A stretch of DNA of 32,000 nt from Promethearchaeota archaeon (GCA_030606485.1 JAUWGH010000011.1:33414-65413); one strand, 5' to 3'; numbered from the stretch's first letter, positions 8,677 through 32,000 are shown. The notes: a model not told the origin generated them from the letters alone. Numbers and translations: made by a program.

Positions 8677-9438
8677 ATGAGTATTGATTGGAATTCAGTA
8701 GAGGCTAAACCAGATAAGTCCCATAAAGTTATTGGACAGGCTCTTTTAGATTTGCGTGCAAAAGTTAATAGTTTAGAAAAACAGTTGGCAATCAACCGAA
8801 CAGAGCTGGAAAAAACTACTAATGAATTAAATGCCACCAAGACAAAATTAACTACCACAGAAACTGACTTGAGCACAATTAAAGAGGAAAAAGAAAATAT
8901 TGATAAGAAATTTACAGATCTTGAATCAACCAAATCCGCTTTAGAGAATGAATTAAATGATGGAAAAGCGAAAATTACTGAGTTAGAAGAAAAACTAAAT
9001 ACCTCTGCGGCAACCAACACTGAACTACTAAAAAAAATTGAAAACCTTGAAGCCGATTTAACTACAAAAACAAATAAAATCCAAACCCTTGAATCTGAAA
9101 TTCCCTCAAAACAAGAAAAAATTAATGAATTAACCAACACTTTAAGTGAAAAAGAAAGCCAATTAGAAGAATTAAAATCATCTCTTGCCGAAAAAGAACA
9201 GACATTGAGTCAAATTACTGCCCAATTGGAAGAAACGAAGTCAGAATTGAGTGCATTTAAACTCCCTGAGATTGGCCCCGTTGAACCATTTCGGAGAGAA
9301 GAGAGAGTGATATGCCCTATGTGTAGTGGAACTGCTATAAAAGAAATAGACGACAAAACCAAAATTTTATATTATTCAGGAACCAAAGCCATTTACGCAA
9401 AGAAAAAAATATGCAAAAAATGCGGATACGAATTCTAA
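8677..9438 (+). CDS. long coiled-coil protein with C-terminal zinc ribbon
   Basis: About 170 aa of E/K/L heptads, then CPMC...CKKCGYEF. Confidence 0.85.
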   Translation: MSIDWNSVEAKPDKSHKVIGQALLDLRAKVNSLEKQLAINRTELEKTTNELNATKTKLTTTETDLSTIKEEKENIDKKFTDLESTKSALENELNDGKAKITELEEKLNTSAATNTELLKKIENLEADLTTKTNKIQTLESEIPSKQEKINELTNTLSEKESQLEELKSSLAEKEQTLSQITAQLEETKSELSAFKLPEIGPVEPFRREERVICPMCSGTAIKEIDDKTKILYYSGTKAIYAKKKICKKCGYEF

Positions 9439-9474
9439 GAAATGAAACTCTAATAAAGTCTATAATAAAACCAA

Positions 9475-9663
9475 TTACCCACTAACCAAGTCAATCCCTC
9501 TACACCTAGGAACTATATGAATCTCTTATTTATTTGTTATCATAACAATTTCAGTAACTTCTTCAGTTGGTTGCGGCCTTATAAGTACGTGGGCCCATCT
9601 ATCAGAAAAAGCGGGATTAACATTTCTTGAATATGGAGTCTTCATAAAACCTTTATTTGTAAT
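9475..9663 (-). pseudogene. decayed 189-bp paralogous fragment of the FAD oxidoreductase at 1-1196
   Basis: Translates ITNKGFMKTPYSRNVNPAFSDRWAHVLIRPQPTEEVTEIVMITNK*EIHIVPRCRGIDLVSG*, colinear without gaps with 951-1139 (ITDKDFMKAAYSRNVDPAFPDRWADMIVRPQSTEEV...); two in-frame stops. Confidence 0.88.
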
Positions 9664-9778
9664 TCTAAAAATTGTTGTAATGGAAAAAAAATTAAAAAGC
9701 ATATTAATTTAATTTTCTTATTCTTACTATAGAACAAACGGGTCAAAATATAAATAAAAATTCAATAAAAACTTAAAA

Positions 9779-10726
9779 GTGGAGCAATTGGATTCCTTAG
9801 GATTAGTAATTAAAGATGAATTATTGCGATTTTTAGAAAAAGAATTTGAAAGTAGCAAGCTTAACCTTCTTCCTGAGAAATATAAGGGTGGAAAAATATT
9901 TTCTCATCCATTAATAGGCGTTGCTCAAGGTAATGATCCTATTTTTCAAAAGTTCAAAGAAGTTGTAGGTCCGGAACATCTAACACCTCTAGAAATGTGG
10001 GTAGGAAGTGGTCAAGATCAATTGTCAGCGTCTGACCTTTATGTAGTATCTATGGTGTTTCCTTTTACTGATAAGATTCGCAGGGAAAGTAATAATCCAA
10101 TTGTATTGCCTCGAATAACATTACCAGCTGAAACTTATTCTGTTGCTAGAAATTATGGTAATGTATTCAAAAGGGATATAATGAAGCAAACAATTAATTT
10201 TTTAAAGGAAAAAGGTTATAATGCCGTATCTGGGATGTCCTGTGATGCTTATTCAGTTATTTTGAAAGGAAAATTTTATTCTACTTGGTCTGAAAGATAT
10301 ATTGCTTTTGCTGCGGGATTAGGAACCTTCGGTTTGCATGAAGGACTAATTACTGAAGTAGGGTGTAATATTCGATTAGCCTCAGTGGTCACTAATGCCC
10401 CAATTAAAGTTTCTCGAAGAAAGAGTGATGAACCTTACTCAAATTGTTTATATTATGCAAAAGGAACTTGCAAAGAATGTGCGAAAAAGTGCCCTGCAAA
10501 TGCGATTACAGAAAAAGGACATAATAAAACAAAATGTAATAAATATCGCTGGAAGGTTGCAAGAAAAATGATACCACGTCTTGGTTCAATTCTGAAGCCT
10601 GATTCCCGCCGTATTAACTGGAAATTAAAAGAAGATATTTTCCTTGTAGGTTGTGAATTTTGTCAATTTGGAGTCCAATGTACGGATAAAAACCCTATGG
10701 TCAGTGACTACTTAGATTTTGATTGA
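9779..10726 (+). CDS. epoxyqueuosine reductase (QueG)/reductive-dehalogenase-like 4Fe-4S protein
   Basis: WSERYIAFAAGLGTFG, RLASVVT, CKECAKKCPANAI, GCEFCQFGVQC. Confidence 0.8.
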   Translation: MEQLDSLGLVIKDELLRFLEKEFESSKLNLLPEKYKGGKIFSHPLIGVAQGNDPIFQKFKEVVGPEHLTPLEMWVGSGQDQLSASDLYVVSMVFPFTDKIRRESNNPIVLPRITLPAETYSVARNYGNVFKRDIMKQTINFLKEKGYNAVSGMSCDAYSVILKGKFYSTWSERYIAFAAGLGTFGLHEGLITEVGCNIRLASVVTNAPIKVSRRKSDEPYSNCLYYAKGTCKECAKKCPANAITEKGHNKTKCNKYRWKVARKMIPRLGSILKPDSRRINWKLKEDIFLVGCEFCQFGVQCTDKNPMVSDYLDFD

Positions 10727-11499
10727 GATTGATGCTTAAACCAGGTTACTACTGATTCAACCGTCTTCTCAAAAGCTTTGGGATCTGTAAGTTTATGATC
10801 TGCTCCTTCGATAACAATAAGCTCCTTAGGCTCTTTAGCCAATTCGAAAAGGCGGTGAACCCCCGCCAAATCTATTCCTTCATCTGCATCTCCTGCAATT
10901 ATAAGCAGTGGACGGGGAGCAATACTTAAAACCTCCCGAATAGGATTTAACTTTTTCGAATCCTCCAGCATACTTTCAAGGATTTCTTTGCTAATATCTG
11001 GATCACTCAATCCATGCATTTCGTCTGGTGAATTTTGCACCAAGTCTTCTACAGCGAGTTGAATAAGGGGGGAACGAGCAAATGCAAGCGTGTCATACAC
11101 AGGTGCCCGAAGGCATACCACACTAATTCGATTATCGCGAACCGCAGCCAACACAGCTACAGCTCCACCATAACTAGCCCCATATACTCCAATCCAGTTT
11201 TTAACTGAGTAATCAGACTCTAGCAGATGAGAAACAGCATTTCGGGCGTCTTTAACTTCTCGGGCAAGACTGAAATATCCTTCACTCCGACGGAATCCCC
11301 TAAAATCAAACGTTAAAACTAGGAAACCGGCTTCCGCTAGTCGAGAGGCTATACCATGCACTTGATCAGGAGACCCTGGAAGCCCATGAAATTTACATAT
11401 CCCCGGAAATGGTCCATCGCCCTCTGGAACTAAAAAGTTTCCCCTCAGCAACTGCCCCTCTGAATGAAATTCGGTTGGAATAAGACGGAAATTCGACAA
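10708..11499 (-). CDS. alpha/beta hydrolase (S9/esterase-like)
   Basis: FHG, FDFRGF..SEG, GASYGG, GDADE, GADH. Confidence 0.88.
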   Translation of the reverse strand: MSNFRLIPTEFHSEGQLLRGNFLVPEGDGPFPGICKFHGLPGSPDQVHGIASRLAEAGFLVLTFDFRGFRRSEGYFSLAREVKDARNAVSHLLESDYSVKNWIGVYGASYGGAVAVLAAVRDNRISVVCLRAPVYDTLAFARSPLIQLAVEDLVQNSPDEMHGLSDPDISKEILESMLEDSKKLNPIREVLSIAPRPLLIIAGDADEGIDLAGVHRLFELAKEPKELIVIEGADHKLTDPKAFEKTVESVVTWFKHQSQSKSK

Positions 11500-14929: not shown

Positions 14930-15005
14930 AAAAAATCTTTCATTATTTAATTTGCGGGGCTTAATATACAAAAGAATTGACATATTATCCATTTTGTGGT
15001 TCTTA

Positions 15006-15413
15006 CTAAAAAAATTCAGATAACCTAAGTTCTGTTGCATCTTCACCATCCAAATTAGGTCCTGGAAAGAGAAAAGGGGAAAGTCCAGCTCCCAATCCAG
15101 CTCCTAAACGAGGATATCTGATTGTTGATAGAACTAATATTCGATTTTTGCCCGCAGCCATTATGAGGATTAAGCCATTATCTCCCTCAATCATAATTCT
15201 CTTTAGATTTCCACGAACAACCTCTAAAACCCCACGTTCTCCTAATGAAAATATCGCAGCGGTCATAGCGGCAATTTTTGTATCATCGATCGCCTCGGGA
15301 AAAACACTTACAATAAGGGACCCCTCTATTGAAACAATTGCTCCAGCCTCAACGTCAGGATTGGACTTAACCAATCTTTTTAATTCTCGCTTAAGTGATT
15401 TTAAATCATCCAT
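15006..15413 (-). CDS. roadblock/LC7 domain protein, copy A (long C-terminal tail)
   Basis: VEAGAIVSIEG, IAAMTAAIFSLGER, LKRIMIEGDNGLILIMAAG: MglB/Robl_LC7 pattern. Confidence 0.88.
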   Translation of the reverse strand: MDDLKSLKRELKRLVKSNPDVEAGAIVSIEGSLIVSVFPEAIDDTKIAAMTAAIFSLGERGVLEVVRGNLKRIMIEGDNGLILIMAAGKNRILVLSTIRYPRLGAGLGAGLSPFLFPGPNLDGEDATELRLSEFF

Positions 15414-15544
15414 TAATTTCTCATTGGATCATTATTTCTCAAATTTATATAAAAATAAATTTAGAAGATAAGTTATTTAATAATTGTGATAGGAACTAAA
15501 TAAAATTTATTAATGTTTTATTCAATCTTATTTCCGCAATTTTT
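15089..15544. repeat. ~455-bp dispersed duplication (roadblock gene, upstream region and 3' end of preceding zinc-ribbon gene); partner at 25065-25519
   Basis: Near-identical by eye over the CDS and the upstream intergenic region; offset about 9975. Confidence 0.92.
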
Positions 15545-25044: not shown

Positions 25045-25389
25045 TCAGGTATCAATTAAGAAATCTCCTAATCCAGCTCCTAAACGAGGATATCTGGTTG
25101 TTGATAGAACTAATATTCGATTTTTGCCCGCGGCTATTATGAGGATTAAACCATTATCTCCCTCAATCATAATTCTCTTTAGATTTCCACGAGCAACCTC
25201 TAAAACCCCACGTTCTCCTAATGAAAATATCGCAGCGGTCATAGCGGCAATTATTGTATCATCGATCACCTCGGGAAAAACACTTACAATAAGGGACCCC
25301 TCTATTGAAACAATTGCTCCAGCCTCAACGTCAGGATTGGACTTAACCAATCTTTTTAGATCTCGCTTAAGTGATTTTAAATCAACCAT
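25045..25389 (-). CDS. roadblock/LC7 domain protein, copy B (short tail)
   Basis: Near-identical to copy A through RYPRLGAGLG. Confidence 0.88.
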   Translation of the reverse strand: MVDLKSLKRDLKRLVKSNPDVEAGAIVSIEGSLIVSVFPEVIDDTIIAAMTAAIFSLGERGVLEVARGNLKRIMIEGDNGLILIIAAGKNRILVLSTTRYPRLGAGLGDFLIDT

Positions 25390-25519
25390 TAATTTTTCAT
25401 TGGATCATTATTTCTCAAATTTACTAAAAATAAATTTAGAAGATAAGTTATTTAATAATTGTGATAAGAATTAACTAAAATTTATTAACCTTTTATTCAA
25501 CCTTATTCCCGCAAATTTT
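25065..25519. repeat. second copy of the ~455-bp roadblock duplication
   Basis: See 15089-15544. Confidence 0.92.
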
Positions 25520-25687
25520 ACACACTTTTTGTCTATTTTTGAGTTTGCTACCGCAATTCTTATAAAATTTCCTGCTTTTTATTAACACTTTTGTCTCATT
25601 ATCAATTACTTTTATATTTCTATAGCCTTTTATTTTTTCTATTTCAAAGCCATCTAACGTTTTTATCAGTACATATACCTCGATCAC
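25493..25687 (-). CDS. small zinc-ribbon ORF, probably a 3' remnant (first Cys lost)
   Basis: FYKNCGSKL..QKVCKICGNKVE; GTG start. Confidence 0.5.
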   Translation of the reverse strand: MIEVYVLIKTLDGFEIEKIKGYRNIKVIDNETKVLIKSRKFYKNCGSKLKNRQKVCKICGNKVE

Positions 25688-25997: not shown

Positions 25998-26555
25998 ATG
26001 ATTACGATAGAAAGTTTTCTGGATTTAAAGAATATTAAAATTCTAATAGATGTTTGCAATATATGTTATTGCCAAAAAACTGATGATGGGAAACCTATTC
26101 TTGCCAACTTAATGTCAGTTTTACATCATTTGATTAAAGAATTAGAAATCCCGAGGCATAATATTATTTGTATTTCGGATCCTGGAGTTGTTAGGTATAT
26201 GGATGATTCGAAAAAGTTCCAAAAAATGATAGATTCTGGAGAGGTCATAAAATCGCCGAAAACGGCAGATGAGTTCATTTTAGGGTTTGCACTTAGTTGC
26301 GACTTCTGTCTAATTATATCTAACGATAAATATAGAGACTATATTAAACAATTACCGAGTGAAGAATGGCTTCAAGATAGGAGTGTGAATTTTATGATAA
26401 TTAATGGTGTAACGGTTTTAAGTCCTAATATCGAATTTGAGAAATTAAGCGGTAGAGTTGGAAAAACTTTTAGTGAAAAAATTAGTGAAAATATTGAAGA
26501 ATTTATTGACATAACTAAATTAGAAAAAATTACGTTAAGTGAAAGAGATGTATAA
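25998..26555 (+). CDS. PIN/NYN RNase domain of the Zc3h12a (Regnase)/PRORP type
   Basis: LIDVCNI, ICISD, ADEFIL, IISNDKYRDY acidic motifs; AAGGAGG SD upstream. Confidence 0.8.
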   Translation: MITIESFLDLKNIKILIDVCNICYCQKTDDGKPILANLMSVLHHLIKELEIPRHNIICISDPGVVRYMDDSKKFQKMIDSGEVIKSPKTADEFILGFALSCDFCLIISNDKYRDYIKQLPSEEWLQDRSVNFMIINGVTVLSPNIEFEKLSGRVGKTFSEKISENIEEFIDITKLEKITLSERDV

Positions 26556-26645
26556 AAAACGCAATATATTTGGTGGGATATTAAAAAAAATAAAAGAAAA
26601 TTAAGAGTAAAATATATTTATAATAAACCTTAATTGGTAAATTTT

Positions 26646-27425
26646 ATGAGTTGGGAGGAAAGAGAGATTTTATTAGTTGCAAAAACCTATCCTGTAAGAA
26701 GTAGATCTCATGGAAATACCGTATGTACTGCAGGGATTTTAGAAGATACAAATGAATGGGTAAGAATTTATCCAATCAGATGGATAAAATATGCTAAAAA
26801 TAATTTAAAGAAATTTGTGCGCTTTAAAGCTCAAATTAAGAAAAATACTTCAGAATATCTACAAAGAAAAGATTCCTATAAAATCAGAGAACCTACAATC
26901 AGAATAACTGATGATAGTTTAACTAAAACTCAAAATAAAGGAGTCTGGCAAGAAAGAAAAAAGATATTATTAAAAACTCTCTCCAATTCAATTGAAACTC
27001 TTAATGAAAAATTTAAGGAGGATAAAACATCATTAGGAATGATAAAACCAATAGCAAATTCAATAGAATTTTTGATTCTTAAACCAGTTGATGAAATTGA
27101 AATTGATGTTGAAAAATCAACTCAATATACCATTTTTGGAGAGAAATTAATAAAAGTTGATAAAATAGAAAATGTATTTAAATATAAATTTAAATGTATT
27201 AATGTTAAATGTTCCACTCATAAAATGATATGTGAAGATTGGGAATTACTACAAGCTTTTAGAAAATTTAGAAAGATATACGATTCTGAAGAACTCGAAA
27301 AACAATTAAGAAATCAATTTTATGAAAAAATGATTAAATATAGAGATTTATATTTTATTGTAGGTACTCATTGGCAATTTCCTAAATTTTTAATAATTGG
27401 ACTTTTTTATCCCCCAAAAAGATAA
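26646..27425 (+). CDS. conserved hypothetical protein, DUF488-associated (dual-OB-like) family
   Basis: AKTYP..S..HGNTVCTAGI....WVRIYPI, SLGMIKP, FKYKFKC....C..H.MICEDWE, LYFIVGT..F.IIGLFYPP. Confidence 0.65.
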   Translation: MSWEEREILLVAKTYPVRSRSHGNTVCTAGILEDTNEWVRIYPIRWIKYAKNNLKKFVRFKAQIKKNTSEYLQRKDSYKIREPTIRITDDSLTKTQNKGVWQERKKILLKTLSNSIETLNEKFKEDKTSLGMIKPIANSIEFLILKPVDEIEIDVEKSTQYTIFGEKLIKVDKIENVFKYKFKCINVKCSTHKMICEDWELLQAFRKFRKIYDSEELEKQLRNQFYEKMIKYRDLYFIVGTHWQFPKFLIIGLFYPPKR

Positions 27426-27438
27426 GAGATTAAATAAA

Positions 27439-28503
27439 ATGAAAATAAAAATTGAAAAAATAATAGTTGGAAAATATAATGTAAGAGAAAAATTTGAACA
27501 AGAATATTTAGAAGAAATAAAAGAAAGCCTAAAAATTGATGGGCAATGGAATCCTATAATTATAAGACCTATAGGAAATGGGAAATATGAATTGATTTCA
27601 GGACATTATCGTTTACAAGCGGCCATAGAATTAGGTTGGAAAGAAATCGAGGCTACTGTAAAAGATATATCAGAAATTAATGCAGATGTATTGTCTTTAA
27701 AAACAAATTTATTAAGATTGAATATGTCTCCAAGAGAACAAGGTAAAGTTATACATAATTTAATAACAAAATATGGGATTAGTCAAAATGAATTAGCGGA
27801 AAAAATAGGAATGAGTCAGAGCAAAATTAGTCAATTATTAACAATTGTATTGAAATTACATAAATCTGTCGTTGATGCTTTAAATTTAAAAACCATAAAT
27901 TATGGAATTGCATCTGTTATTGGAAGTCTTAGTTTAGAACAGCAACCTATTTTTTTAGAAATCATTTTGAATAGTAAAATCTCATCTCCAGCATTAGCAA
28001 CAAAAATAAAGAATAAATTTTTAAATAACACCTTATATACGATTGGATATCAAGGACGAAATTCAGCTAATTTTATTGAAATTTTAGAAAAAAATGATAT
28101 TAAACTTGTCGTTGATATTAGAAGTTCTGCAAAATCAGAAAAAAAACCAGAATTTAATGAAGAAATCCTGAGTCGAGAATTGGAGCGAAATGATATGAAA
28201 TATAAACACTATCCAGAATTAGGTGTTCCATATATACTTCAAGAACCATATAAAGATGGAAAATTTTCATATGAGTGTTTAAAACAATGGTACAATTGGC
28301 ATATCAAAGAAAATGTTGAATTGGAAGAAATAATAAAATTTTTAAAAGATTCGGGACGGTCGGTAATATTATGTATGGAAAGATATGCAAAACCAACGAA
28401 AGAGCAAAAATATGCTTGCCACAGAAATATTCTTGCAGATTTAATTTTAAAATTTAAGGTTTCAGATCCCTTGCTTGAATTTAATAAAAGGATAGATTTA
28501 TAA
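27439..28503 (+). CDS. ParB/Srx-HTH-DUF488 fusion protein
   Basis: PIIIRP..YELISGHYRLQAA (ParB), SQNELAEKIGMSQSKISQLL (HTH), then YTIGY, VDIR, HYPELG, LCME..CHR (DUF488). Confidence 0.85.
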   Translation: MKIKIEKIIVGKYNVREKFEQEYLEEIKESLKIDGQWNPIIIRPIGNGKYELISGHYRLQAAIELGWKEIEATVKDISEINADVLSLKTNLLRLNMSPREQGKVIHNLITKYGISQNELAEKIGMSQSKISQLLTIVLKLHKSVVDALNLKTINYGIASVIGSLSLEQQPIFLEIILNSKISSPALATKIKNKFLNNTLYTIGYQGRNSANFIEILEKNDIKLVVDIRSSAKSEKKPEFNEEILSRELERNDMKYKHYPELGVPYILQEPYKDGKFSYECLKQWYNWHIKENVELEEIIKFLKDSGRSVILCMERYAKPTKEQKYACHRNILADLILKFKVSDPLLEFNKRIDL

Positions 28504-28707
28504 AATTATTTTTAATTTTAATTTATTTTAAAATAAAGATTTTCAGCTTTTTATGAAGATGATACTCATTTCTTTTATTTTCTTTAATCAAAATTGCATT
28601 AAGATTCAAACATTTGTGATCAAATAACTCAAAATCCCTCGTGATAAAGAAATTTTGATATTTTTACTATTTTATCGATTCTATATATATGACTTTTTAT
28701 TAGTATT

Positions 28708-29172
28708 TTAAAAAAAAGAATTATTGGAGCAATTAAAGCATTCTGAGTTTTTTATATCGTTTGCTAATCTACAATTTTCACATATTTTAATTTTTGTGCA
28801 GATATTCTTTTCTATAATTAATATTTTAATCTCAAATTGAATAGTTTTTAAAGCATTATTTAAATCACTTATACATTCTTTACCAATCAATATACCTCTA
28901 ATTCTTTTATTATCCCCAAATTCTTGTCCAATATCTTCCAAATAGCCATTTAATTGTAATAAATGATTAATTTCAAGGGGTTCAATTTTTAATTCGATTA
29001 CAACAATTTCATTTTTTAAAAAAACTATTAAATCGGCAAATCCTGATGGTAGGCGATATTGTGGTATTGATTTTTGATTAAGAAATTGTTTTTCAATCAA
29101 ATATGGATGAGTTTGGTAAAGAGTTTGAATTTCTTTTTCAGTAACAGAATTTTCTTCATCTAAAAAAAACAC
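28708..29172 (-). CDS. NucS-like PD-(D/E)XK endonuclease domain with C-terminal zinc ribbon
   Basis: EKEIQ, GFADLI..IVVIELK, QLNGY, RGILIG; CENC...CFNC. Confidence 0.78.
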   Translation of the reverse strand: MFFLDEENSVTEKEIQTLYQTHPYLIEKQFLNQKSIPQYRLPSGFADLIVFLKNEIVVIELKIEPLEINHLLQLNGYLEDIGQEFGDNKRIRGILIGKECISDLNNALKTIQFEIKILIIEKNICTKIKICENCRLANDIKNSECFNCSNNSFF

Positions 29173-29177
29173 GTTAT

Positions 29178-29783
29178 TTACCTTCCTAAATGCGCTATTG
29201 CTTTATCTTCCATAATTCTTTCGACGATAACATTGACAATTTTTTCCCTTTTACGGAATCTTTTTTCATTTGATTTTAAAATGGAATAAGCGGCTTGTTT
29301 TAAAATTTGGACATCTGGATATCTTTTTAAATCATTTAATTCTTTTCTTAATTGTTCTGGGGGTAACATAAGCCATCTTGAGGTTTGATCTTCAATTCTA
29401 ATCTTTTTTGATACAGAAGGGGCTTTCTTTTTAGGCGGAAGTTTCCTTTTTGGAGCTTTTCTAACAGGTTTAGGAAGTAGTTCTATCAATTTTTTAAGAG
29501 CAATGTTCTTAGATATAGATACTTTTGCTATCTCCTCTTCGATATCTACCCTTTTGGTTTTTTTAACTTGATAATTTAATTTTATTTTTGAAAAATTTTT
29601 TAGATCTGTAATAATTCTAAAATTTTTTTTATCTTTAAAGAAATTTAATATTTTTTCATCAATTTTAACACATAGATTTAAATCCTGTTCCAATTTAATT
29701 AATAAATTATGAATTTGATTGAGATCATAGAACTCTGATTTATTCTGAATTAATAATTTAATCCCATCTATTATTTCAATCAT
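29178..29783 (-). CDS. hypothetical basic protein downstream of parA
   Basis: 201-aa ORF tightly packed between ParA and the nuclease; Lys/Pro-rich linker; GGAGG SD upstream. Confidence 0.75.
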   Translation of the reverse strand: MIEIIDGIKLLIQNKSEFYDLNQIHNLLIKLEQDLNLCVKIDEKILNFFKDKKNFRIITDLKNFSKIKLNYQVKKTKRVDIEEEIAKVSISKNIALKKLIELLPKPVRKAPKRKLPPKKKAPSVSKKIRIEDQTSRWLMLPPEQLRKELNDLKRYPDVQILKQAAYSILKSNEKRFRKREKIVNVIVERIMEDKAIAHLGR

Positions 29784-29816
29784 AATATTTTTAATTGGAA
29801 AAACCCCTCCTTTATT

Positions 29817-30734
29817 TCATTTTGAAATTATATTCAGTATTTCATGACATAGGTTTCTAAATTCCATTGTAGAATCAGAGCGGGGTTTATCAACACAAAC
29901 GGGTAAATATTTACCAGAAGCCTTTTTGATATCAACTTTATTAGTAATTATACTTCTAAATACTATAGAATTTTCATCAACCATGTTTTCTTGTTTAAAA
30001 ATTTCTAATAATCGCCGAATCCTTTGTAATCCATCTTTATGTACATTTATGCGTGTATCCAATAAATTTATCAATATTCCAGCTAATTTAACAGATGCAT
30101 TTTTCTCTTCTCTTTTAATCTCAATCGTTTTGTTTAATGAATTAACTAAGAGTGGAATTCCACTAATAGATAGATAATCAGGAATTGTTGGAATTATAAA
30201 ATAATCTGATGCATATAATGAATTATGGGTAGTTGTATAGATATTTGGAGGACAATCAATAAGTATAAAATCATAATAATCTTTTATTTGTTCCAGAAAT
30301 TTACTAAGAATAGCAAACCTTGATCTTACATAATTAACGATTTTTTGTTCTAATTGCATTAGGTGAGAAGTTGCGGGAAGTAAATCAAGTTGAGTTAATG
30401 GTCTGATTTCTTTTCCTTGAATTGTTCGTCTTACAACTGATTTAATTATTGCAGTTCCAAAATTAAATCTTTTCTTATTTTCATTATCTTCCATTGCATC
30501 TAAAAAAAGTTGATAAATGGTATCGCGATATATATCATTTTCATCTAGTTCATATCCAAATTTTTGTTGATATCTCTTTGGACCCATCAACAATGTAGAA
30601 ACGTTTGCTTGAGGATCCGTATCAATTACTAATACTTTTCGATTTTCTCTTGCGAGTTCTCCTGCAATATTGGCGCAGCATGTAGTTTTTCCCACGCCCC
30701 CCTTTAAATTTATAAAACTAATAATAACGCCCAT
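29817..30734 (-). CDS. parA: ParA/Soj family ATPase
   Basis: Deviant Walker A KGGVGKTT, VIDTDPQAN, ILIDCPP, SDYFIIP. Confidence 0.9.
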   Translation of the reverse strand: MGVIISFINLKGGVGKTTCCANIAGELARENRKVLVIDTDPQANVSTLLMGPKRYQQKFGYELDENDIYRDTIYQLFLDAMEDNENKKRFNFGTAIIKSVVRRTIQGKEIRPLTQLDLLPATSHLMQLEQKIVNYVRSRFAILSKFLEQIKDYYDFILIDCPPNIYTTTHNSLYASDYFIIPTIPDYLSISGIPLLVNSLNKTIEIKREEKNASVKLAGILINLLDTRINVHKDGLQRIRRLLEIFKQENMVDENSIVFRSIITNKVDIKKASGKYLPVCVDKPRSDSTMEFRNLCHEILNIISK

Positions 30735-31177
30735 TTTTTATCAATCTAAAATATACTGTTAGCTAATAGAACATATACACAATTTAATTTTTTGTTTTGT
30801 AATAATTTTGCTGGAATCTTATTTTTAATAATAAACTACATTAAATTTAATTTTAATTATAAAGATTCCAAATGTATAGAGAATTCTTTGGGTTGCATTT
30901 AAGAGAATGGGAACAAGAAGGTATTATCAATTATATAGATAATTTAATACATAGGAAAAAAGCCCTATCTCCCTAAAATTTTAAACCCTTTCACTTTCTT
31001 CTCTTAAAATACCTCAATTTAACCCTATTACACTAAAAATAACCAAGATATTTTCTAACAGAATTTTGAAGTTCATTTTTCATAATACCAAAGTTTATTT
31101 AATTTAAAAATTTATCTTACATGCTTGAACAGAGATATTTCAAAGTTTCAAGTATAAAATTAAAATTTGGTGAAAGT

Positions 31178-31318
31178 ATGTCTAATAGAAATTATGGCAA
31201 TAGAACGATGCACAAAGCTACATGTGCCGACTGCGGCAACGAGTGCGAAGTTCCATTTCAGCCTAAGGAAGGCAGACCTGTTTATTGTCGAGAGTGTTAT
31301 AGAAAGCATAGAAGATAA
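31178..31318 (+). CDS. CxxC-x17-CxxC domain protein
   Basis: MHKATCADCGNECEVPFQPKEGRPVYCRECY. Confidence 0.92.
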   Translation: MSNRNYGNRTMHKATCADCGNECEVPFQPKEGRPVYCRECYRKHRR

Positions 31319-31334
31319 TTAATTCAATTTTTTC

Positions 31335-31361
31335 TAAGTTTTGGTTACAACCAAAAACTTA
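31335..31361 (+). terminator. hairpin followed by T-rich runs downstream of the CxxC-x17-CxxC gene
   Basis: taagttttggtt-ac-aaccaaaaactta inverted repeat with one bulge. Confidence 0.4.
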
Positions 31362-31556
31362 TTTTCTAACTTATCGAGTAATGATTAATTTTTTTTAATT
31401 TTTTTTAATTCTTTTTTTAGGCCCTAGATCTATAAAAATAAACCTACACAAAATAATTAAAGAACCCGTTTCAAGGCTTCATACCCTTCAAATTTAAATA
31501 TTAGAAGATTTTTATCAATACGTAGAATTAAAATTGGAGAAACAGGGATTTAATGA

Positions 31557-31694
31557 TTAAATGTGTAAAATATCACATTTTTGGGCATATGGATTATTTC
31601 TTCCGACATGAAAAAATTCCATCTTTTCATATTTCTCCCAGAATCGATATAAAGCATTACACATTTTCGATACGTGCGGGAATTTTTTTTCCAT
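31557..31694 (-). pseudogene. 45-aa ORF, possibly an RNase HI-like C-terminal remnant
   Basis: MEKKFPHVSKMCNALYRFWEKYEKMEFFHVGRNNPYAQKCDILHI*; F.HV.R.N...D.L weakly resembles the RNase H C-terminus. Confidence 0.3.
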
Positions 31695-31756
31695 TTTTTG
31701 ACTTATATATAAAAGGCTTATAAGATTAACAAACATATATTTGAGATCATTATTTT

Positions 31757-31984
31757 ATGAGCAACATGGACAAATTAAACGCAATATCACAAATGATAGA
31801 GGGATTGAAAGAGATTAAACAAGAAGAGAAAATAATAGTGCCTAATTGTGAATTCTGTGGTAAAAGCATCGTGGGCAGTAAGTGGAATAAGGAATATCAT
31901 CATATTAATATATGCCAAGAACCAATAAAACGATTTTTTTGTTCCCGTCAATGTAAATTAAGATGGGTTTTTAAAAATTTTTGA
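31757..31984 (+). CDS. small metal-binding protein (TRASH/YHS-like CxxC...FCSxxC)
   Basis: CEFCGKSI...FFCSRQC. Confidence 0.65.
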   Translation: MSNMDKLNAISQMIEGLKEIKQEEKIIVPNCEFCGKSIVGSKWNKEYHHINICQEPIKRFFCSRQCKLRWVFKNF

Positions 31985-32000
31985 TTTTATTTTGTTGATA

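Follow-up and report, generated by a model that had tools for sequence, protein, structure and literature searches.

The 32,000-nucleotide stretch of DNA analysed here (the window; GCA_030606485.1 JAUWGH010000011.1:33414-65413, G000:C13:33414-65413 in our indexing of genomes and contigs) belongs to a Promethearchaeota archaeon with a genome of 3.75 Mb (29% GC, 13 contigs). Its positions 25998-30734 contain six intact open reading frames (ORFs), g1 to g6, in which plus-strand g1-g3 converge on minus-strand g6-g5-g4, and close homologues of the encoded proteins carry the names Promethearchaeota, Helarchaeota and Thorarchaeota. Our analysis indicates that this region is probably composed of three unrelated units, namely, a pair of the PDC-M19 type (g2 and g3), a trio of the ParA-HeH (helix-extended-helix) type (g6, g5 and g4) and a lone RNase gene (g1), with the pair and the trio being candidate defence cassettes for which mechanisms can be proposed. 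Both groups are already catalogued candidate systems, placed in this Asgard archaeon with their 3' ends facing each other, and both are predicted immune systems from the archaeal lineage closest to eukaryotes. An earlier note, written from the sequence alone, had treated the six genes as a single conflict/defence or mobile module. Its two convergent three-gene blocks and their PIN-like, OB-like, ParB-DUF488, ParA and NucS-like domains were confirmed by the ORFs, Pfam, PADLOC and structure models, and the features of the region are as follows.

25998-26555, plus strand: g1, NYN RNase, 185 amino acids (aa), from the ORF and Pfam.
26634-27425 (likely start ATG 26646), plus strand: g2, tandem OB-fold protein of the PDC-M19B type, from PADLOC and an AlphaFold2 (AF2) model.
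27300-27420, no strand: approximate breakpoint of the mosaic similarity to the M19 copy on contig C10, from nucleotide identity.
27439-28503, plus strand: g3, ParB-CTPase fold, ParB helix-turn-helix (HTH) and DUF488, 354 aa, from Pfam and PADLOC.
28504-28707, no strand: convergent intergenic spacer separating g2-g3 from the ParA trio, from reading of the sequence.
28706-30904, minus strand: ParA-HeH-nuclease cassette, comprising three genes and a 170-bp upstream region, from the limits of similarity.
28708-29172, minus strand: g4, NucS_C-only PD-(D/E)XK nuclease with a zinc ribbon, 154 aa, from Pfam and alignment to 2vld.
29178-29783, minus strand: g5, all-helical protein, 201 aa, from an AF2 model and alignment.
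29817-30734, minus strand: g6, ParA/MinD-type ATPase, 305 aa, from Pfam.

The division into units is based on how the genes travel in other genomes and on where similarity begins and ends. When the surroundings of each g2 homologue in the related genomes (11 extended loci) were searched by tblastn with all six proteins, the only companion of g2 proved to be g3 or a DUF488 gene, and g1, g4, g5 and g6 were present in none of the 11. Among the 15 other M19 loci examined g1 occurs in none and the ParA trio in one (L065); conversely, the trio adjoins an M19 pair in two of the eight trio loci with usable flanks. Homologues of g4 and g5 were found in 2-3 of the 41 genomes of the order and, where both are present (G024), they lie together beside a ParA. 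The borders of the trio are sharp. Positions 28706-30904 are 95.6% identical over 2199 bp to positions 8791-10988 of a locus in GCA_019058035.1 (L032) that has unrelated flanking genes, and this similarity extends from precisely the stop codon of g4 to a point 170 bp upstream of parA and no further. The right-flank homology to contig C130 of another genome, G002, starts at 30902. The ParA trio is therefore a discrete 2.2-kb cassette that abuts g2-g3 by chance. On the basis of the tblastn comparison and the genome searches with g1, g4 and g5 the six-gene unit was rejected, and the "module" should be split. The earlier note had itself made its proposal depend on the six genes occurring together elsewhere, which is largely what these loci lack. 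Its conflict/defence flavour, by contrast, is supported for both gene groups, as each matches a candidate defence system and has defence genes as neighbours in other genomes.

No Pfam or NCBIfam family was found for g2. It does, however, match the PADLOC profile PDLC04508 (PDC-M19B) end to end, with an E value of 1.9e-46 and residues 9-262 aligned to positions 3-262 of the 269-position profile. PDC-M19 is a PADLOC phage defence candidate (PDC; Payne, Hughes, Fineran, Jackson; bioRxiv 10.1101/2024.01.29.577857), and the g2-g3 pair shares with it the two-gene composition of a DUF488 protein and a ~260-aa protein with KTYP, CTAG and W.R.YP motifs. The neighbourhood of DUF488 and this motif family, which the earlier note had offered from recall, is thus real and corresponds to PDC-M19 A and B. 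In g2, the three motifs are invariant alignment columns, as is a C..C..H..C cluster, and homologues place the start of the protein at ATG 26646 and not 26634. The AF2 model of g2 (predicted local distance difference test score (pLDDT) 83, predicted template modelling score (pTM) 0.82) is a tandem OB fold. Foldseek matched this model to archaeal RPA (the best match), HIN-200 domains and the single-stranded DNA-binding protein LEF-3, with E values of 4e-5 to 1e-3, probabilities of 0.9-1.0 and template modelling (TM) scores of ~0.3. We propose that g2 is a nucleic-acid sensor or specificity subunit.

The g3 protein contains Pfam domains ParB_N (3e-17), HTH_ParB (4e-11) and DUF488 (1e-15), and scores 120.6 bits against TIGR00180. 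Its ORF has alternative starts at 27397 and 27439, of which homologues favour ATG 27439 (354 aa). The match of g3 to PADLOC M19A (3.1e-23) is limited to the DUF488 part (positions 140-285 of the 294-position profile). The front half of M19A is unmatched and g3 has ParB_N and HTH_ParB, that is, a ParB-CTPase fold and HTH, in its place. The pair further differs from PDC-M19 in that the genes occur in both B-to-A and A-to-B order and in being an archaeal form. By its sequence, g3 is best described as an M19A equivalent with a swapped front half, making the pair a variant and not a standard PDC-M19 member.

The two genes, which are 13 bp apart, are strictly linked. An M19B-like gene adjoins a DUF488 gene in all 11 loci of the related genomes, in both gene orders and with the ParB fusion in same-family loci, and it adjoins ParB-DUF488 in the distant L065, where the M19B is 63% identical to g2. 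A search with ParB-DUF488 returned 226 matches, with ParB_N and DUF488 in all 120 clusters listed and HTH_ParB in nearly all; most are ~354 aa and the named matches include Promethearchaeota and Bathyarchaeia. An M19B-like gene follows the fusion in two of three contigs from this search (36% identity in L064 and a weak match in L062), one contig being named Bathyarchaeota. In the third, L063, a gene of M19B-like size is present beside the fusion, with no homology detected. A conserved gene of ~70 aa, which is absent from the window, overlaps the start of ParB-DUF488 by 4 bp in L062 (5789-6004) and L063 (5792-6004), one of these contigs being named Bathyarchaeota, and it could be a third cassette component in that lineage.

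The three-domain architecture of g3 is also that of an archaeal ParB-CTPase-HTH-DUF488 fusion of which one representative bound cytidine triphosphate (CTP) in a differential radial capillary action of ligand assay (DRaCALA; bioRxiv 10.1101/2025.10.10.680097). That fusion is treated as an orphan ParB-like fusion, however, and neither a tandem-OB partner nor PDC-M19 is mentioned in the consulted part of the preprint. The ParB-CTPase form of PDC-M19 thus joins an orphan CTP-binding ParB fusion with a PADLOC candidate, and suggests the hypothesis that a CTP-gated DNA clamp delivers a DUF488 enzyme under the control of an OB-fold sensor. In such a mechanism, the tandem-OB protein g2 would recognise foreign or aberrant nucleic acid, probably single-stranded DNA, as a fast-diverging specificity subunit, g3 would load onto DNA via its ParB-CTPase/HTH clamp, and the clamp would thereby bring the DUF488 enzyme domain to the target. 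The nucleoside triphosphate sensing that the earlier note had suggested is plausible by analogy, given that the archaeal fusion binds CTP in vitro and that ParA is an ATPase. Leads to the chemistry of DUF488 were sought, with no solved relative found by sequence, no usable Atlas match and no informative paper; mentions of "DUF488" in a review of SGNH hydrolases were discarded as they actually refer to DUF4886.

The genome of the window carries a second PDC-M19 copy (G000:C10:104839-106700; loci L002 and L019), which corresponds to window positions 26634-28514. Nucleotide identity between the C13 and C10 copies is 51-61% over 26634-27315, then 72%, and then 76-88% from ~27316 to 28514. The switch is sharp and is located around 27300-27400, where g2 has its 3' end. 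At the protein level the g3 copies are 78% identical and the g2 copies only 43-46%. The converse is seen in relatives with a g2 that is 58-64% identical, in which g3 is only 43-47% identical. These opposite patterns imply that g2 and g3 recombine as modules, and the C13/C10 mosaic suggests that the copies underwent modular exchange or gene conversion. We infer from these sequence comparisons that the OB protein g2 is a diversifying specificity or sensor subunit and that ParB-DUF488 g3 is a conserved DNA-loading enzyme. The in-genome copies, which combine the same enzyme with different OB proteins, amount to a naturally occurring test of which subunit determines specificity.

The gene order of the ParA trio is stable. 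Co-oriented genes for a ParA (~305 aa), a ~195-aa protein and a NucS_C protein (~154 aa) are kept in every locus with a g5 or g4 homologue (L026, L031-L034, L046-L050 and L065), and g4 starts 5 bp downstream of g5 in all of them. The g4 product matches Pfam NucS_C (2.2e-8), aligns to residues 126-215 of P. abyssi NucS (2vld) and belongs to a family of 56 clusters, nearly all of 153-159 aa. Its D47, E60, K62, Q73 and Y77, which form a D..ExK..QxxxY motif, and the four cysteines of a C-terminal CxxC...CxxC ribbon are invariant in 15 family members. The protein thus shares with NucS/EndoMS (PDB 2vld, 5gke) the C-terminal PD-(D/E)XK domain, with D, ExK and QxxxY in register. It differs in having no N-terminal NucS domain, in adding a zinc ribbon and in its length (154 aa versus ~250 aa); against the NCBIfam NucS model NF003270 it scores 43 bits, where the cutoff is 216, over profile positions 127-233, and it is not a two-domain NucS. 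With its catalytic residues intact, g4 is predicted to be the effector nuclease of the cassette.

The ATPase g6 matches Pfam AAA_31 (5e-43) and CbiA (2e-19), and has the Walker A motif KGGVGKT. Between trio loci its identity is 65-78%, and two stretches, at residues ~51-67 and 83-93, are variable. We propose that it is a switch or DNA-coating component. The most divergent of the three trio genes is g5, for which no Pfam, NCBIfam or PADLOC family was found and whose own family is small (14 clusters at 90% identity, with 1.84 billion proteins yielding 48 cluster representatives). The protein is all-helical and consists of an N-terminal domain, a K/P-rich linker (residues ~105-128) and a C-terminal domain ending in an invariant LGR. 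Its AF2 model has a pLDDT of 72, in which residues 40-109 match SAP, Rho-N and MANF-SAP HeH domains weakly. An Atlas feature search returned bacterial clusters of ~210 aa at 0.88-0.89, which are a lead only, and a Rho_N cluster at 0.80; an Atlas shape search gave TM scores of at most 0.28. We propose that g5 is a PHeH-type sensor or adaptor. Co-folding of g6 with g5 gave a score of 0.45, with the best of three controls at 0.00, agreement between runs in at least 93% of contacts and a partner pLDDT of at least 74. The mark thus passed is one that 58 of 80 solved complexes attain, as against 2 of 110 mismatched pairs. With a score of 0.60 or less, only 7 of the 80 attained it, together with both passing mismatches, and the co-fold thus lends weak support to a g6-g5 interaction.

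The trio resembles subtype iv of the ParA-HeH systems, the third gene of which encodes "a NucS-related Restriction Endonuclease domain" (Li, Burroughs, Aravind; bioRxiv 10.64898/2026.10.19.760177). The ParA of that subtype belongs to the ConB1 conflict clade, which is marked by a V in the Walker A motif and a variable insert after beta-2; g6, with its V and its variable stretches, may be a member. The trio also shares a fast-evolving helical protein and a NucS-related third gene; on the HeH feature itself, the matches of g5 have Z scores of 3.8-5.8. It is different in that it often follows NurA-like and HerA genes, and Asgard archaea, HerA and NurA are all absent from the main text of the preprint. 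In the mechanism predicted there, the HeH protein would be a sensor of invader DNA that keeps ParA restrained, ParA would then multimerise on DNA and the nuclease would serve as back-up effector. Applied to the window, g5 would sense invader DNA and restrain g6, ATP-bound g6 would on release multimerise along DNA, and g4 would then cut the DNA, either as executor or as back-up. The trio would then exemplify the proposed ParA-based immunity in a compact form, with three proteins of which one is a nuclease. Among the genes flanking the trio elsewhere are ThsB-TIR, McrBC, PIN/MazE and HepT/MNT, as well as a cluster of DpdA, methyltransferase, HNH and DEAD/MZB helicase genes. HepS (Nature 2026), which is probably the Salmonella HEPN system of the preprint, was considered as support for the ParA part and set aside; it is described as a single-protein system without a co-occurring partner.

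A ParA gene next to small partner genes could also denote partition. The trio would in that case be the partition or stability module of a plasmid or integrated element, with ParA as motor, g5 as adaptor, g4 as DNA binder and the neighbouring genes as cargo. Three-part archaeal par systems do exist, such as AspA-ParB-ParA of pNOB8. Moreover, g6 has the canonical deviant Walker A motif of ParA, the basic linker and C-terminal LGR of g5 are reminiscent of ParA-stimulating peptides, and the cassette moves between contexts, with many copies on short contigs. However, g6 scores only 84 bits against NCBIfam ParA_partition (cutoff 180) and so is no equivalog of a partition ParA, while g4 has a fully intact set of catalytic residues, for which a centromere binder would have no use. 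The whole 32,000-nt window contains no integrase, transposase or replication gene, in agreement with the earlier note, in which no integrase had been visible. No iterated centromere-like repeats were found in or near the cassette, and an alignment of the region upstream of parA from five loci showed conservation only between two near-identical copies, with no shared centromere or operator. No relative of the trio was found in the viral contigs of IMG/VR. An extrachromosomal element was ruled out, as contig C13 overlaps contigs C8 and C4 at its two ends and is not circular. C13 is thus a chromosomal fragment, and the long contigs that carry the trio show ordinary chromosomal flanks. We therefore regard a partition module as unlikely, and the earlier note's alternative of partition/addiction cargo in a decayed integrated element finds little support. 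Nor do the two gene groups together resemble a canonical ParABS system. A ParA-type ATPase and a ParB_N/HTH protein are both present, but they are encoded in separate convergent cassettes, DUF488 occupies the place of the dimerisation domain in g3, which also lacks an N-terminal ParA-binding motif, and no parS-like repeats were found.

Several points weigh against the interpretation of the pair and the trio as separate defence cassettes. PDCs, PDC-M19 included, are predictions (bioRxiv 10.1101/2024.01.29.577857), as is the NucS-type ParA-HeH subtype (bioRxiv 10.64898/2026.10.19.760177). The sole characterised system cited in the latter preprint has a HEPN effector. Alignment of g3 with Noc and Spo0J revealed GHYR at the position of GERR and TNLLR at that of ENLQR, and its ParB nucleotide-binding motifs thus appear diverged. 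The HeH assignment of g5 is weak, with Z scores below 6, and a Foldseek search of its model against the PDB returned nothing at E values up to 0.001. In addition, the NurA-like and HerA genes beside the trio could be a pointer to DNA repair instead of immunity, and the proximity of trio and M19 pair in two genomes exceeds that expected from uniform placement.

The NurA-like/HerA neighbourhood is a five-gene arrangement in which the trio directly follows the NurA-like and HerA genes, in L031, L046, L047/L048 and G024 (4-5 genomes; coordinates 6087-8971 in L031, 1197-4058 in L046, 5485-8357 in L047 and 2330-2698 in L026). The NurA-like protein, of 378 aa and 18-20 bits, is just below the Pfam cutoff, its partner is HerA/DUF87 and both genes are co-oriented with the trio. 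Taken with the Mre11- and Rad50-like genes located 6 kb away on one contig, the archaeal RPA that is the best fold match of g2 and the role of NucS itself as a repair nuclease, this arrangement would fit accessory DNA repair or chromosome maintenance by both cassettes, whereby an RPA-like OB protein acts with a ParB clamp and its enzyme, and a ParA-guided NucS-like nuclease acts with NurA/HerA. The distribution of the genes is too patchy to sit easily with such a role, as a search of 301 genomes of the phylum yielded the g5 family in only two and M19B was found in 12 of the 41 genomes of the order, and the flanks are variable and rich in defence genes. The 100%-complete genome of the window, furthermore, gave no match to the HerA that precedes the trio elsewhere, g4 does not have the NucS N-terminal domain, and HerA pairs are common in defence systems; indeed, PADLOC matches HerA and mad8 for this pair. 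These data make a repair function for both cassettes quite unlikely.

The proximity of the two cassettes raises the question of a functional connection. They abut in the window, and in L065 (1526-8049; Logan DRR463595 contig) a divergent trio of ParA, g5-like and NucS_C-like genes lies 2.5 kb upstream of a ParB-DUF488/M19B pair. The latter trio is only 34% (ParA) and 29% (g4-like) identical to that of the window, making this a second, independent co-location in a distant genome. A rough estimate, which assumes ~0.35 M19 copies per 4-Mb genome, puts the chance of two co-locations within 5 kb among eight trio loci at ~3e-5 under uniform placement. If the adjacency were functional, the cassettes could form a composite ParA/ParB-type immune system in which g3, as a CTP-gated clamp, marks invader DNA and recruits or stimulates the ParA g6, with g4 as the effector that the ATPase directs to this DNA. 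Against this, ParB_N/DUF488 was found nearby in none of the six other trio loci with flanks and the trio is absent from 14 other M19 loci. The cassette border falls exactly between trio and pair, the two are convergent in the window, three unrelated genes lie between them in L065, and by reading of its sequence g3 lacks the N-terminal LG(R/K)GL motif for ParA binding. We attribute the co-location to defence-island clustering, which accounts for it and also supports a conflict role of both cassettes. A composite system is thus very improbable, and the excess over uniform placement leaves only a slight chance of a functional link.

The remaining gene, g1, encodes an NYN/Zc3h12a RNase of the PIN-like clan (Pfam PF11977, 26.3 bits against a cutoff of 23), and its acidic motifs (D..N, D, DE and ND) are common to the homologues in L053 and L054. 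Its closest relatives, which are 42% and 38% identical, come from G019 and G021, two genomes in which no M19B was found, and have different neighbouring genes. A PIN-type type II toxin-antitoxin assignment was examined for g1, with no small partner ORF found adjoining it and with neighbours that differ in the closest homologues. The g1 gene belongs to neither cassette and probably encodes a stand-alone RNase that acts independently. In L053 and L054 (G019:C21 and G021:C58), the g1 homologue sits between two conserved genes, one for a ~450-aa protein that looks like a winged helix-turn-helix protein by eye and the other for a large protein with a P-loop motif (GTGKT) at its end. These three genes could constitute a conflict module in their own right, of which the g1 of the window would have lost the other two.

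The composition of the region is unexceptional. The earlier note had judged it more AT-rich than its flanks, and positions 25998-30734 do have a GC content of 26.3% compared with a genome mean of 29.2% (standard deviation 2.6%, same-size windows), but this is the 12th percentile and not an outlier. No tRNA genes are present in the window. Repeat families around the cassettes were AT-rich chance matches, with no att-like or centromere-like repeats among them. A scan for bacterial-type promoters and terminators, which is of little value in an archaeon, equalled the expectation from shuffled sequence and gave no site in the 28504-28707 spacer. In a search by synteny for an empty site the same-genus genomes proved too mosaic, with only the right flank from 30902 (in G002 and G003) and paralogous left-flank pieces being matched.

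The flanks themselves show signs of rearrangement. The left flank contains an internal duplication of ~480-530 bp (window 15005-15535 and 25065-25543), consisting of a roadblock/LC7 gene and an adjacent zinc-ribbon gene. Both copies match one and the same stretch of G001:C11 at ~91-92% identity, and the left flank is therefore a paralogous, rearranged region. On the right, ~3.4 kb of extra DNA is present in G002:C130 (L045) between the matches to window positions 30902-31488 and 31483-32000, and the 57 bp at the upstream end of the cassette (30845-30901) recur at L045 8934-8990 with 88% identity. This extra DNA and the recurring 57 bp hint at a recombination hotspot. Divergent from parA, at 31121-31318, is a gene for a 65-aa treble-clef zinc finger (zf_Tbcl_2, 1.6e-20), the family of which is also found 5 kb upstream of the NurA/HerA/ParA cluster on another contig (ERZ23486238).

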